NCBI RefSeq assembly: GCF_003334765.1
Contig: NZ_QOWT01000012.1
Direction: 5' to 3' (one strand)
From: Escherichia coli
GTDB taxonomy: Bacteria > Pseudomonadota > Gammaproteobacteria > Enterobacterales > Enterobacteriaceae
Length of the DNA: 64,000 nt
Both the position numbers and the translations under genes were made by a program. The stretch's first letter is position 1. Each line of letters starts with the position of its first letter. The notes under the pieces are model-generated. The model was given only the letters and a program-made list of their open reading frames with translations. It did no database searches and was not told the DNA's origin. Of this stretch, positions 54,507 through 61,908 are shown piece after piece.

Positions 54507-54591
54507 GCCGAAGTGGCGAAATCGGTAGACGCAGTTGATTCAAAATCAACCGTAGAAATACGTGCCGGTTCGAGTCCGGCCTTCGGCACCA
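54507..54591 (+). tRNA. leuX: tRNA-Leu (anticodon CAA)
   Basis: 85-nt sequence GCCGAAGTGGCGAAATCGGTAGACGCAGTTGATTCAAAATCAACCGTAGAAATACGTGCCGGTTCGAGTCCGGCCTTCGGCACCA: acceptor stem, long variable arm and CAA anticodon loop; encoded CCA end. Confidence 0.92.
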
Positions 54592-54681
54592 AGTCTTATC
54601 TAAGTCGTTGTTTTAAAACAATTTAATCCATAATTTTGCTTGAAATCGCGTAGCCCCTCTTACAAAAGGGTATACGAGGCG

Positions 54682-56592
54682 ATGTCTCAGCGATATAAAC
54701 TCTATCGTCGAACCAGCGGCATTTATGTTGTCCGCATTAGCATTCCCCAACGTTTTCGTCGATACGCAGGACAGTGTGAGATTCACACTTCAACAGGCAC
54801 TCACGATCTTCATGAAGCAAAGCAGAAGTCCGCGCTCCTGTTGGCGGTCTGGTATCAGACCTTACAAGAGTATGAACAATTGGATTATCGAACTTTAAGT
54901 GACTGCGCCCCGCTGCTTGCTGGTGAGGGTATGATCTCGCTTTCTAACTTTGCTCAGTCAGTTGAGTTGCCTGTTGCGCAATTAATACAGGCGGTGATGA
55001 ACCGTAATCTGCCCGTATTCTGGCTGGCGACGGGGCAGGCTGGCTTTTATGTTGCAGCGCTCTCTGAGGCTGAGCTAGACCCGCTTGATGGCAGTTACGT
55101 TCTTAATTATGGCGAAGAGAAGGGTATCGAGGGGGTTGCTAAAGGCTATCTGCAACTCACTGCGCAACCAGCACATTTACGTAACATTATTAGCGACGGT
55201 TATTCAGAAGCTTCGGTGTTCAAAACTGCCGGAAGCGACGCTAAAGGCGGTTGGTTTTTCACCTCCGGTTGGCCGGTAATTAAACCCGATACGCTTTTGA
55301 TCAATAAAGTCCATGCAGAAAGCCTAAGGCTTGATTGGCTGGCTAAGACCACGCCTCCAGTCGCTAGTGTTCATCCTACCGTGCCTCTTGCCGCTCCTGC
55401 CCCTACTATCGATAACGAGTATGTTAATCGAAAGTATTACACTAAGAATCTGTCGTGGTTATGCTCTGAATATCTAAAGCATCGGCGCAAGGGCAAGGTA
55501 TCGGAGTCGGCTATAAGTGATATCCGTAACTATTTCAGCTTTATGATCGAAGCGATGGGTGACATTCAGTTGGAAGATTTTGATCGCGATTTCCTCCGGG
55601 CTTATGAGAGCAAACTGCGCACGATCCCAGCAAACCGTAATTTAGTCAAAGCTAAATATGGAGTGAAAACGCTGGATCAGTTAATCGCCAAAGCGGCAGA
55701 ATGCGGCGATAAATTGATGACTGAGGAATCCGTTAGGAAGTATATCAACGGCATTTATGGTGCAATGAAGTGGGCTGTTGCTGACGGTAAGCTACTGAAA
55801 TCGCCATGCGAAAACTTTTTTCCATCCGATGATAAAGATGAGCGAGATCAGGATCACACTGACATATTTGAACCGCATGAAATTAAAGCGATTTTTTCGT
55901 TACCGTGGTTTGAGGCTGGAACTGTTGAACGCAATGCGCAAGGGCGATTCCATCAATATTGCCCGTTTAACTATTGGGCACCTTTGCTGGGCTTGATGAC
56001 GGGGGCGCGAGTTAATGAAATCGCTCAGTTACTGCTGAGTGATGTTCTGGCAGACGACGGCGTCTATTATTTGAACCTTGAAAGCGATAATGAAAGCGGA
56101 AAGAAACTCAAAAATGCTAATGCTCGCCGCAAGATTCCGCTCCATTCAAAGCTGATTAGTCTCGGTTTCATCGACTACGTGAACGCCTTAAAAGATGCAG
56201 GGTATACCCGTCTCTTCCCGGAGCTTAAACCACATAAAACAAAAGGCTATGGTAGGCCAGTTTCCGCATGGTTCAATGAATCGTTGCTTGCGGGGCGGTT
56301 GAAACTCGAGAGGAACAGAAGCAAATCTTTCCATTCTTTTCGCCACTCAGTTTCGACTTTGCTCAAGGAGAAGGGCGTTAGCTCAGAATTACGAGCGCAG
56401 CTACTTGGGCATGTGCGCGGCGAAACTGAAACGGAAGTGCGATATAGCAAAGACCTCAAACCAATTCATATGATTGAAGTCGTGGAGAAAATTGATTTTT
56501 CGTTACCTGATATAGCGGAATTCAACATTCCTGACGGGCTGGATGCTGTCAGAGATGCGTTGCGAAGAAAGCGTGGCAAACAAACAGGTTGA
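54682..56592 (+). mobile_element. Tyrosine-type site-specific integrase (~636 aa, long N-terminal extension), adjacent to leuX
   Basis: Catalytic signature visible: box I TGARVNEI, box II HSFRHSVST, downstream LLGHV and the nucleophile tyrosine in EVRYSKD. Start placed at the ATG at 54682 after a GAGG RBS; the ORF is open from 54640. Confidence 0.8.
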
Positions 56593-56623
56593 ATCAGTTA
56601 CTATTCAGTTGAGTGATGCTTGA

Positions 56624-56655
56624 ATGCGCTGGGACGCTTCCTGGCGCATTTTTTA
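56624..56655 (+). terminator. Rho-independent terminator after the integrase gene
   Basis: ATGCGC-TGGGACGCTTCCTG-GCGCAT hairpin followed by TTTTTTATT. Confidence 0.6.
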
Positions 56656-56724
56656 TTAAGGGTGGTGGATTTCATAGTGCTGAATTTGGAGACGCTCAAA
56701 ACACGTTTGGTGAAACTTGATGAC

Positions 56725-57057
56725 CTACGATTGCACCCGCAGCCCTTCTACGCTTTCTGATGGTAGATTTATCACTGTTTTAATGCTGGCCTCTATGTTG
56801 CCAATGATGTCTTCGCGCGGGCCGCTGCGCCAGTCATCGCTTGCGTAAAAAGCGTCGAGAACCGTAGTCATGCTTTTAGGGCTGACAAAGGCGCGAATCA
56901 GGTAATAGCAGTCCGGGTCATGCAGAGAGTTACCAAACGAAACAACATCGATCCCGTGGCGTTGGTGTAGGGGAACACTGATTTCCTGCATAATGGCGTG
57001 AAAAGCGGCACCGCTGCCTTTGCGTAAGGTGTATTGCAGTATCTCGACGGTTCTCAA
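56725..57057 (-). CDS. Small dimeric alpha/beta-barrel-like protein (NIPSNAP/stress-responsive-like), function unknown
   Basis: 110-aa ORF convergent with the integrase; the pattern EILQYTLRKGSGAAF…YYLIRAFVS…DAFYASDDWR is reminiscent of NIPSNAP-type barrels (from memory). Confidence 0.45.
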   Translation of the reverse strand: MRTVEILQYTLRKGSGAAFHAIMQEISVPLHQRHGIDVVSFGNSLHDPDCYYLIRAFVSPKSMTTVLDAFYASDDWRSGPREDIIGNIEASIKTVINLPSESVEGLRVQS

Positions 57058-60141: not shown

Positions 60142-60201
60142 TTAAATGCGAGGTCATTACATAAGTTTATTTTTGATGTTAGGGTGAATTCCCTCACATT
60201 T

Positions 60202-60696
60202 TTATTCGAAAGAGGCCGCAATGACTTCTCCTGTTTTTGCGTTGAAAACACAAAAGTATTGAAGCGGAGCTAGCATCCCCAAGCTGTTAACTACCTTAGC
60301 TTGTTGCCCAAATGCCTGAATAATCTTCGCGTTCTCATCGTGCCAGAGATAAGTATTAAATACAGGCGCTTCGCTTTCTTGCCACACATGGCGAAACTTC
60401 GCTTTCTCATCCATTACCTTTTTGCACTCCCTGACCGGGTTATGGTGCGTTTTCGCATAGCATTCCGGGTTGTCATCTGCACATACGATATCTTTTCGTG
60501 CTGTCTGATGCTCAGCACCTACAGCAGAAAAGGCGCATACGCCCAGCACCAATGAGAGAGTGCCCAGAGCACCCCATACAGTTGCGCGTAGCGTGCTGAT
60601 GTGCTGCTTTGATACAGCATGGGCAACTACACTATAACTGGCCCAGCTAATCGCGGCTCCCGCTGCAATCGGTAATAAAAAGTCTGCTCCCGTCAT
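60202..60696 (-). CDS. Small membrane protein with a Cys-containing extracytoplasmic domain, function unknown
   Basis: Start at the ATG at 60696 (RBS GAGGG) giving MTGADFLLPIAAGAAISWASYSVVAHAV… with two hydrophobic helices followed by a soluble domain (…CADDNPECYAKTHHNPVRECKK…). Confidence 0.5.
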   Translation of the reverse strand: MTGADFLLPIAAGAAISWASYSVVAHAVSKQHISTLRATVWGALGTLSLVLGVCAFSAVGAEHQTARKDIVCADDNPECYAKTHHNPVRECKKVMDEKAKFRHVWQESEAPVFNTYLWHDENAKIIQAFGQQAKVVNSLGMLAPLQYFCVFNAKTGEVIAASFE

Positions 60697-60936
60697 GATT
60701 CCCTCACTTTCCAAACCACATCGCGCCTGATAGCGAACGCTGGTGACGCCCAACCGATGATGATCATCATACTTGTTGGGTTTTAAATGTCACCATTGGT
60801 GTTTGTTTTGAATCAAAAAGGATTGTCATGATACAGCCGATGAATGCTAGTGACTAAGCTCGCTGAAGTGAGATTGGATTCAAAATATCTCATATGGAGC
60901 GTGGCCTTACAGTGGTCAAAATTGCACATTCAGTGC

Positions 60937-61401
60937 ATGAAAAAATCCCTGAGAATACAGTTTGGCGAGCGGGTAAAAGAACTGCGCATTGCCACCGGAT
61001 TGAGCCAAGAGGCCTTTGCCGATCGGTGCGGGTTTGCACGTAGTTATATGAGCAGAATTGAACGTGGTGGCTCTAATGCGTCTCTGGATGCGATTGAGGT
61101 GCTGGCTAACGCTCTGAGCGTTGAGCCGTGGCAGTTGTTAGCGCCTGGCCCATCTGAAGATAACGACTCGGAACTGTTGGTTCCATACGCAGCCGATGGT
61201 TCCTGTTTTCACCCCGGTTTGGCGAGCACCCGTGATGGTTCGTTTGGCGTAGGTGATAAAGCGGCTCAGAAGCGTTTTGGCACGTTTGCTGAAGCTCTTG
61301 AGTATCTTCGTAGCATGGAGACAGCAAAATGGCGTAGGCCTAATCCTAGCGGCAACTGGGGTATCGTATCAGCGGTTCGGTGGGACAAACTGAGAAAGTA
61401 G
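60937..61401 (+). CDS. XRE/Cro-family HTH transcriptional regulator with a C-terminal extension
   Basis: ATG at 60937 gives MKKSLRIQFGERVKELRIATGLSQEAFADRCGFARSYMSRIERGGSNASLDAIEVLANALSVEPWQLL (classic HTH_XRE); divergent from the membrane-protein gene. Confidence 0.7.
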   Translation: MKKSLRIQFGERVKELRIATGLSQEAFADRCGFARSYMSRIERGGSNASLDAIEVLANALSVEPWQLLAPGPSEDNDSELLVPYAADGSCFHPGLASTRDGSFGVGDKAAQKRFGTFAEALEYLRSMETAKWRRPNPSGNWGIVSAVRWDKLRK

Positions 61402-61880
61402 CTCAAGTGTAAGTTTATGAATTTTTATGCTGTATGGATGAACAGTATTCATTAGATGCTGATAGTCTTATGTTTCATCAGCCCTTTGTTTCTATAAGAG
61501 TGAATAAAACAGCAAAATGCGGGTGCGTTACGGTGGCGTTTCGCTTTGGCTCTTAATGGCTTAATTCATATAAATAACATTGAGTTAAATAGTTATTCTG
61601 AACAAGGTCTGCCGGGGTCTAACTGGTTTCAAAATCCGAACGCAGTGGCGTTTATTCAACGTCCACATAGCTGACAAATGTTCTTTCCTCCCGACTCGGC
61701 AGACCTCCAGAAACATTAAAAGGCAGGTATGGCACGTTGATGTTTTATGCCGCCACGAACACTCGGTTTGATTCCGTCCAGCGGATCAAACTTAATATGT
61801 AGCCCCTAGAACAAAAAGGTCCTACGATTGCTCTCTTAACAGCTAACAGGAACGTGATTACAGCAGGTTATAGAGACTTA

Positions 61881-61908
61881 GGTTCGAGTCCGGCCTTCGG
61901 CACCAAGT
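61881..61908 (+). repeat. 28-bp direct repeat of the leuX 3' end (putative att site of the integrated element)
   Basis: GGTTCGAGTCCGGCCTTCGGCACCAAGT at 61881-61908 is identical to 54567-54594 (3' end of leuX); the flanking sequence is unrelated. Confidence 0.75.

Follow-up and report, generated by a model that had tools for sequence, protein, structure and literature searches.

An integrative element at the leuX tRNA gene

In the window, a 64,000-nucleotide stretch of Escherichia coli DNA, the interval 54595-61908 is very probably a small element of the SpLE5 type, an 'integrase-only island', that has integrated site-specifically at the 3' end of the tRNA gene leuX. This assignment is carried by exact boundaries, by filled and empty alleles of the locus, by an intact integrase, by synteny within a family of elements and by defence cargo in relatives. 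An earlier note on this DNA had reported an exact 28-bp direct repeat consisting of the final 25 nt of leuX and 3 nt beyond. Both copies of this repeat, GGTTCGAGTCCGGCCTTCGGCACCAAGT, were located (54567-54594 and 61881-61908), and a third copy was not found in the window with up to 3 mismatches allowed. None of 100 shuffled sequences yielded a match to the 28-mer, and the number of exact 28-mer pairs expected by chance in 64 kb is ~3e-8. The single tRNA gene of the window, tRNA-Leu(CAA) at 54507-54591 (ARAGORN; Rfam tRNA, 59 bits), is intact, and its 3' end is overlapped by one of the two repeat copies. The insert between the repeats measures 7,314 bp. The boundary features and attachment (att) sites are the following:

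54507-54591, + strand: leuX, tRNA-Leu(CAA), intact, its 3' 25 nt lying within the left att core (ARAGORN; Rfam tRNA)
54567-54594, + strand: attL core, left copy of the 28-bp repeat (exact match; one copy left in 223 empty-site genomes)
54650-54677, + strand: candidate arm-type integrase site of the P' arm, GTAGCCCC...ACAAAAGGGTATACGA, directly 5' of the integrase ATG (direct repeat D10)
54682-56592, + strand: tyrosine integrase, 636 aa (Pfam; phrog_1), starting 91 nt past the tRNA
61765-61792, + strand: degenerate core-like near-palindrome GGTTTGATTCCGTCCAGCGGATCAAACT (TTTGATTCCG...CGGATCAAA), 68% identical to the att core (19/28 nt)
61799-61827, + strand: candidate arm-type site of the P arm, GTAGCCCC...ACAAAAAGGTCCTACGA (direct repeat D10)
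61881-61908, + strand: attR core, right copy of the 28-bp repeat (exact match)

The distribution of filled and empty sites was analyzed in 5,426 complete E. coli genomes. With positions 54400-62100 as query and a match counted at a coverage of at least 80%, the whole islet was present in 348 genomes. The best 30 filled copies were 100.0% identical over 7.7 kb and came from unrelated strains, including Nissle 1917, ATCC 25922, ML35, an O157:H16 strain and pig isolates; identical copies in unrelated strains reflect a recent spread of the islet. A synthetic empty junction, made by joining 54295-54594 to 61909-62208 (300 bp + 300 bp) and thus holding a single repeat copy, was found in one piece in 223 complete E. 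coli genomes with an identity of 99.8-100% among the matches listed, among them E. coli C, S88 and ATCC 11775. In the annotation of E. coli C, ahr and the leuX tRNA-Leu gene are immediately followed by the AbiJ-NTD4 gene that in the window comes after the right repeat. The occurrence of filled and precisely empty alleles therefore demonstrates that the boundaries are exact and the locus polymorphic, as site-specific insertion predicts. The earlier note had read the layout as an integrated element and had pointed to empty leuX loci in other E. coli genomes as the place to check this; both alleles are indeed found there. Some variant of the family is carried by about 650-690 E. coli genomes.

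The GC content of the islet is 0.466, compared to 0.542 in the 10 kb upstream and 0.398 in the DNA past the right repeat. The proposal that the interval is AT-rich relative to flanking core genes thus holds for the upstream side; the downstream flank is not core DNA but part of a second, older island, which accounts for its lower GC content. Beyond the islet, Nissle 1917 has an integrase-less island remnant comprising AbiJ-NTD4, insertion sequence (IS) fragments and the fec operon, and the islet lies between leuX and this older island.

The integrase lies directly beside the tRNA gene, as described before, and its open reading frame (ORF) is intact. It is composed of an N-terminal DUF6538 domain, an insert of ~195 aa for which no match was found, a SAM-like core-binding domain (SAM_5) and a catalytic domain (Pfam Phage_integrase 5e-9). 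An alignment of 13 homologues shows no variation at R443, K474/K477, H551, R554, H577 and Y588, which make up the complete R-K-H-R-H-Y set of tyrosine recombinases. The cluster of integrases at 90% identity holds 743 member sequences, and homologues with 65-96% identity were found in Enterobacter, Cronobacter, Yersinia, Pectobacterium and Pantoea. A genome scan with the integrase returned 9 loci. At the 5 complete Enterobacterales-type loci (integrase 67-100% identical) the gene adjoins tRNA-Leu(CAA), and a Serratia locus has its own repeat pair 8.1 kb apart; at 2 further loci truncated integrase fragments were present and no tRNA was detected. Integrases of the same length with ~30% identity were seen in Variovorax ginsengisoli (L008) and in a Burkholderiales metagenome-assembled genome (MAG; L009), in both directly at tRNA-Gly(CCC). 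These data suggest that long DUF6538-type integrases form a broader tRNA-targeting clade. Judging from its sequence, the integrase of the window islet is presumably still active. Sequence-based homologues in the PDB were not found for the integrase, the DUF1643 protein or the DUF4062 protein, and essentially no literature was found on DUF6538 or the ECs524x genes.

A motif of the form GTAGCCCC...ACAAAAGGnTnnTACGA is present 55-60 bp inward of each core in direct orientation. Its left copy is nearly invariant in 7 loci from 6 genera, which alone is no proof of an integrase site because the motif overlaps the ribosome-binding site of the integrase gene; the right copy is retained among E. coli variants and, in part, in Serratia. 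The two copies are candidate arm-type sites that would probably aid contacts of the integrase. The core-like near-palindrome, a third copy resembling the att core, is situated 116 bp ahead of attR and shows conservation among E. coli variants alone; it may serve to bind a protein or to terminate transcription. For the excised circle an attP junction of the form ...TAGAGACTTA-28 bp-CTTATCTAAG... is predicted.

The islet shares its backbone with SpLE5

The genes between the integrase and the right end are listed below.

56725-57057, - strand: NIPSNAP-family protein, 110 aa, of an alpha/beta-barrel family, backbone gene (RefSeq annotation; conserved in relatives)
58063-58529, - strand: DUF1643 pseudogene, frameshifted by the loss of 1 nt from a T6 run near codon 6 (alignment with intact orthologues)
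58722-59282, + strand: small serine recombinase of the resolvase/invertase class, 186 aa (phrog_125 1e-55; YGRVST active-site motif)
59296-60141, + strand: cargo DUF4062 protein, 281 aa, with an N-terminal TIR/nucleoside-deoxyribosyltransferase (NDT)-like fold and a C-terminal beta-rich domain
60202-60696, - strand: membrane protein, 164 aa, backbone gene (phrog_20749 1e-102)
60937-61401, + strand: XRE-type helix-turn-helix (HTH) protein, 154 aa (Pfam HTH_31/HTH_3; PADLOC control-protein/capH-like)

The islet was compared to SpLE5 of O157:H7 Sakai and EDL933. In both elements an integrase (79% aa identity), a NIPSNAP gene, an ORF-less region of ~1 kb (95.7% nt identity), a DUF1643 gene, a recombinase (83%) and an HTH gene (90%) follow each other in this order at leuX, so that a homologous integrase at the same tRNA gene is combined with NIPSNAP/DUF1643/recombinase/HTH synteny. 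SpLE5 is likewise bounded by a leuX-derived repeat and likewise present in some lineages and absent from others. It differs from the islet by an extra DUF4160 gene after the integrase, an intact DUF1643 gene, a 438-aa protein as cargo, a 250-aa secreted protein in place of the DUF4062 and membrane proteins, a repeat of 26 nt and a different island as downstream neighbour. SpLE5 is placed at leuX by locus L011 and, reportedly, by the Sakai genome paper. SpLE5/OI#172 (ECs5242-ECs5252) has been described as a 'cryptic prophage-like element' of O157 that is missing from lineage II strains, and ECs5250 was needed for colonisation of calves according to a transposon-mutagenesis study as it is cited there (PMC1890555). 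The earlier note had called the cargo small and unusual. Its contents are as described in that note, namely a NIPSNAP barrel, ~1 kb without a sizeable ORF, a frameshifted DUF1643 gene, the recombinase, the DUF4062 protein, the membrane protein and the HTH protein; they are less unusual than they looked, because the backbone is that of a named O157 element.

Phage structural, packaging, primase, relaxase and transposase functions were not detected among the ORFs of the window with PHROGs, NCBIfam and PADLOC, which agrees with the proposed absence of phage structural and transposase genes. The scans also gave no PHROG or NCBIfam match for replication, helper hijacking or packaging as in phage satellites (P4-like, PICI, cf-PICI, PLE, PICMI). 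An integrative mobilisable element is not indicated either: the window has no relaxase, and the plasmid matches are to boxes A and B (see below), none of them at an annotated oriT. Conjugation genes were not found in any family member examined.

P4-like satellites and islands with a P4-type integrase at leuX, such as KpLE2 of K-12 and PAI II of 536, insert at the 3' end of the gene, are flanked by a short direct repeat and carry variable defence or virulence cargo. The islet shares with them the integration at the leuX 3' end and the short direct repeat, but its integrase is a 636-aa DUF6538-type protein compared to ~400 aa in the P4 type, and no primase/helicase, Psu/Delta/Sid, AlpA or cos was found in the islet. 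A closer parallel is offered by 'integrase-only' islands of E. coli, which carry defence genes with an integrase or recombinase as sole mobility gene and whose route of mobilisation is unclear (Hochhauser et al., 2023; PMC10121019). Like the islet, they are small, occur in a subset of genomes and lack other recognisable mobility genes. In that study leuX is not named and the backbone is not described, whereas here the backbone, the att sites and the Rep-like gene of sister elements are defined.

Family architecture

Family loci were gathered with a ~70-nt box B probe, which yielded 48 metagenome loci. Across the family the right-hand module (box B, DUF1643, serine recombinase, cargo slot and HTH) is conserved, with 83-92% aa identity for the recombinase and 90-93% for the HTH protein, whereas the left-hand integrases are 100, 89, 77, 45 and 36% identical to that of the window and are located at tRNA-Leu or tRNA-Gly. 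Thus the integrase module appears to set the site, and the remainder appears to be a shared chassis. The backbone found across genera consists of the integrase and the HTH protein, to which most loci add NIPSNAP and/or the membrane protein. The slot that follows the recombinase and holds DUF4062 here is elsewhere occupied by an HNH protein, a 438-aa protein, a DRT9 reverse transcriptase (full-length PADLOC match, 6e-212) or PDC-M18B, or is empty. Because defence genes occupy this slot in relatives, the family is a carrier of defence genes.

Several relatives deserve mention. In E. coli XH990 (L066; NZ_CP019359.1 923436-931893) a sister element lies at the tRNA-Gly gene beside actS and encodes a 647-aa integrase, the Rep-like gene described below, a DUF1643 remnant, the recombinase, an AIPR-family cargo protein and the HTH protein. 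The element with DRT9 cargo in Ewingella americana (L006; 9829-20201) has a second tRNA-Leu(CAA) gene, complete and not a 28-bp fragment, as its right boundary. On the IncY plasmid pCP53-92k (L014/L016; NZ_CP033095.1, ~6930-10700) the integrase (99.7% aa identity) and NIPSNAP genes follow a 46-bp stretch that is identical to the 3' end of leuX and stand back to back with another tyrosine integrase; this copy is truncated by the tet(A) region. It looks as if the islet had integrated there into the attP of a second leuX-targeting element, as far as the sequence allows this to be read. The presence of the integrase-NIPSNAP segment on this plasmid shows that it has moved to another replicon. A contig of 9.9 kb from a bin labelled as a Collinsella MAG (L002; JAIJJM010000048.1) does not differ from the islet of E. 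coli and the DNA flanking it, and the assignment to Collinsella is almost certainly a binning error.

An ORF-less segment replaces a Rep-like gene

Between the NIPSNAP and DUF1643 genes, the longest ORF in 57058-58062 encodes at most 49 aa. The following non-coding features were recognised in this part:

57184-57288, no strand assigned: box A, conserved left border of the cassette slot, recurring in L003, L004 and L013 beside different genes
57377-57460, + strand: box B, family-wide non-coding motif TATAAGGA-N27-ACGCWATGCCTGAGAGGGG..GCTTCCAAACCTAGG (48 metagenome loci and 7 other copies)
57617-57975, no strand assigned: near-invariant block, strict core ~57653-57972, with an AT-rich leader before it (16 distinct versions compared)
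58031-58053, no strand assigned: perfect 9-bp-stem palindrome CTGCGTTCA-TATTC-TGAACGCAG, right border of the Rep/ORF-less slot, just beyond the DUF1643 stop

The region does not represent a decayed gene, as tblastn with 9 slot-filling proteins from relatives revealed no remnant. It had no match in 50,697 phage records, and no similarity to known oriT, cos or pac sites of plasmids or phages was found. Similarity to plasmid origins was rejected as well, since only boxes A and B gave matches, in 4 plasmids. Boxes A and B are the conserved borders of a cassette slot. Box B occurs in at least 31 distinct versions, invariably between the integrase side and the recombinase side, and is possibly a protein-binding site or an origin. 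An RNA fold of box B was rejected (alifold -5, -2 and -0.6 kcal/mol, no consistent covariation), and neither box has palindromic structure. Set beside integron gene cassettes, which go with an IntI-type integrase and attC sites, the family has cassette-like slots between conserved boxes that lack such palindromes, and its integrase is of DUF6538/SAM_5 architecture.

Elsewhere, boxes A and B were found on a small ColE1-type Klebsiella plasmid, on an E. fergusonii plasmid that also has the DUF1643-recombinase module, and twice in a Yersinia ruckeri islet. On the first of these, pKP20-558-5 of Klebsiella quasipneumoniae (L013; 6.7 kb, 553-2123), the boxes flank the genes of a DUF4468 lipoprotein and a 190-aa protein, and the same two-gene unit also lies left of box B in many islets. 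Its presence in both contexts therefore indicates that the cassette moves between plasmids and islets. In Yersinia ruckeri ATCC 29473 (L004; 11986-16525) one islet holds 2 box A/box B pairs. Two AAA-ATPase-like ORFs (354 and 420 aa), which may be parts of a single split gene, separate its integrase from NIPSNAP, and IS3 together with unrelated genes takes the place of the element's right half.

From the end of box B (~57530) to the palindrome at 58031-58053, the slot holds either a gene for a 338-aa protein or an ORF-less segment of ~500 bp. The 338-aa protein (for example WP_021557172.1) had no match among the models of Pfam, PHROGs and NCBIfam. All of 25 homologues share Y201 and K203, and in a fold search, the sole informative search, the predicted fold of the protein matched the pT181-family Rep proteins. 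We conclude that, on its predicted fold, the protein would act as Rep_trans-type initiators or relaxases do; at the sequence level it was not found to belong to that family. The gene is rare in E. coli (40 of the 5,426 genomes, 13 of these on plasmids). Rep_trans initiator/relaxases such as NicK of ICEBs1 and MobT of ICESt3/Tn916 drive transfer and rolling-circle replication of integrative elements. The sister elements resemble ICEBs1, ICESt3 and Tn916 in combining a tyrosine integrase with a protein of predicted pT181-family Rep fold, whereas the window islet is without the Rep-like gene.

Within the ORF-less segment, a block of ~320-360 nt is almost invariant in 16 versions, whereas its flanks are only 50-85% identical. 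Per 100-nt bin the block is 94-100% identical in the 4 pairs with ORF-less neighbours, and the serine recombinase gene is 66-89% identical in 4/5 divergent pairs, reaching up to 98% in part in L037. A coding function was rejected, as the block shows single-nt indels and its 48-49-aa ORFs have no third-codon-position bias. No Rfam family was found to match the block or box B: the search over 10 kb was empty at E<=1, and at E<=10 the search over 761 nt yielded no genuine match, as the serC-leader match was due to chance (E = 9.6, 11.7 bits compared to a gathering score of 35). Viral contigs contained no match to a 41-nt probe taken from the block. Minimum free energy z-scores of the block were weak (-1.9 and -1.7), and RNAalifold with 14 versions did not support an RNA fold on either strand, with a single clean compensatory pair beside many invariant and several broken pairs, although the covariation test is uninformative because the block varies too little. 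By eye, a -10-like hexamer (TAAGAT, TATGAT or TATATG) is seen on the plus strand ~7 nt before the core, and a consensus scan found no promoter at the core start.

The function of the block is the one real puzzle of this finding. A tentative idea, which we regard as doubtful, is that the block, perhaps jointly with box B, represents a novel cis-acting element or a structured non-coding RNA that replaces the Rep_trans-like gene, and that the islets are non-autonomous plasmid-like integrative satellites ferrying defence genes between tRNA sites. If true, this would explain in concrete terms how defence islands of the 'integrase-only' kind move.

Integration, spread and alternative explanations

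As a site-specific integrative element, the islet would have entered leuX by integrase-mediated recombination between an attP carried on the element and the 3' end of the gene, and the 28-bp segment of identity would preserve the tRNA while leaving a copy at either end. The cargo slot beside the resolvase-type recombinase holds anti-phage genes in relatives and the TIR/NDT-fold DUF4062 protein here, and a role of the recombinase as resolvase for multimers of an excised replicating circle would fit better than a role as invertase. No excisionase, relaxase, packaging or Rep-like gene was recognised, and intercellular spread would therefore rely on a helper, on transduction or on recombination of the locus. 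The window copy is non-autonomous, and its route of transfer is what we infer from this gene content.

A number of observations weigh against a functional element of this kind. An exact match to the 48-nt attP junction pattern was not found in metagenome and viral contigs, which is weak evidence because circles are rarely assembled there. An Xis/AlpA-like excisionase was not found among the ORFs scanned against PHROGs, NCBIfam and PADLOC, with no further look at small ORFs. The polymorphism of filled and empty sites could in principle be due to homologous recombination of the flanks instead of the present-day integrase. The DUF4062 protein matches only positions 5-169 of the 906-position PADLOC model PDC-S60, a partial match that does not establish a defence role of the cargo. 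Finally, the ORF-less segment occupies the position of the 338-aa Rep-like gene, and the absence of this gene together with the frameshift in DUF1643 suggests that the window copy may be decaying. In the extreme, the islet would be an immobile relic, an old insertion with inactive integrase that depends for any movement on homologous recombination or on generalised transduction of the region around leuX, and the same downstream flank at all filled sites among the matches listed would agree with this, as would the DUF1643 pseudogene, the lack of a recognised excisionase or Rep gene and the missing circular junction in public contigs. We consider such a relic improbable: the integrase ORF is intact and nearly identical throughout the 743-member cluster, both att copies are still identical, the best listed copies are 100% identical in distant lineages, and the 99.7%-identical integrase-NIPSNAP segment has reached an IncY plasmid together with 46 bp of the leuX 3' end.

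Another explanation concerns the way in which the islet would be mobilised. It could be a satellite-like islet on which a Rep_trans-type initiator or relaxase from a related element acts in trans after excision, with box B and/or the block as target. In sister elements the 338-aa gene, with its invariant Y201/K203, sits exactly in the slot that is ORF-less here; box B lies beside this gene and is retained in every variant, including those without Rep, and a resolvase-type recombinase would suit a replicating circle. However, the Rep-like gene occurs in 40/5,426 genomes compared to about 650-690 genomes with Rep-less members, and therefore the helper would usually be missing. Box B forms no covariation-supported hairpin, the region resembles no oriT, cos or pac of plasmids or phages, and nicking is a prediction of the model alone, so that mobilisation in trans seems rather unlikely. 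Still far less probable is that the recombinase is a DNA invertase operating a 3.56-kb phase switch between the inverted repeats 58031-58056 and 61620-61645. DNA invertases are its best PHROG match, and the 26-nt inverted repeat (81% complementary) brackets the genes from DUF1643 to HTH and is kept in E. coli variants, but ~0.1 such inverted pair is estimated to occur by chance in 7.7 kb, and the repeat arms are absent from the Ewingella, Serratia and Enterobacter relatives. A synthetic inverted junction (coverage of at least 80%) was found in none of the 690 genomes carrying the region, which largely refutes a Hin/Gin-type invertible switch.

Taken as a site-specific integrative element, the islet itself is routine, one further integrative element at a tRNA gene that is the best-known hotspot of E. 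coli. The islet is present in the much-used strains Nissle 1917, ATCC 25922 and ML35, so its cargo and stability matter to strain engineers. Its wider value lies at the level of the family, in which a shared module of regulator, recombinase and cargo is combined with integrases for different tRNA sites. The Rep-like gene, alternating with a block that is more conserved than the neighbouring genes, provides leads on the spread of integrase-only defence islands, a question left open previously (Hochhauser et al., 2023; PMC10121019).

Cargo and neighbouring genes

The DUF4062 protein may have a defence function, and the islet probably carries a defence-type gene as cargo. The O157 orthologue of the DUF1643 pseudogene matches Pfam DUF1643 with 1.5e-42. 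NCBIfam matches of the serine recombinase were all under their cut-offs. The 164-aa membrane protein alternates in relatives with a 250-aa secreted protein. The HTH protein is the most conserved protein of the family, retaining its 90-93% identity in divergent members, including one whose integrase is only 36% identical. It resembles control proteins of restriction-modification systems and CapH and is probably a regulator of expression.

Two genes of the older island lie next to the islet in the window. The AbiJ-NTD4 gene (62439-63263, + strand) is a full-length match to the PADLOC candidate system PDC-S32 (6e-104), and the adjoining gene for a 208-aa protein (63312-63938, - strand) matches phrog_11802.

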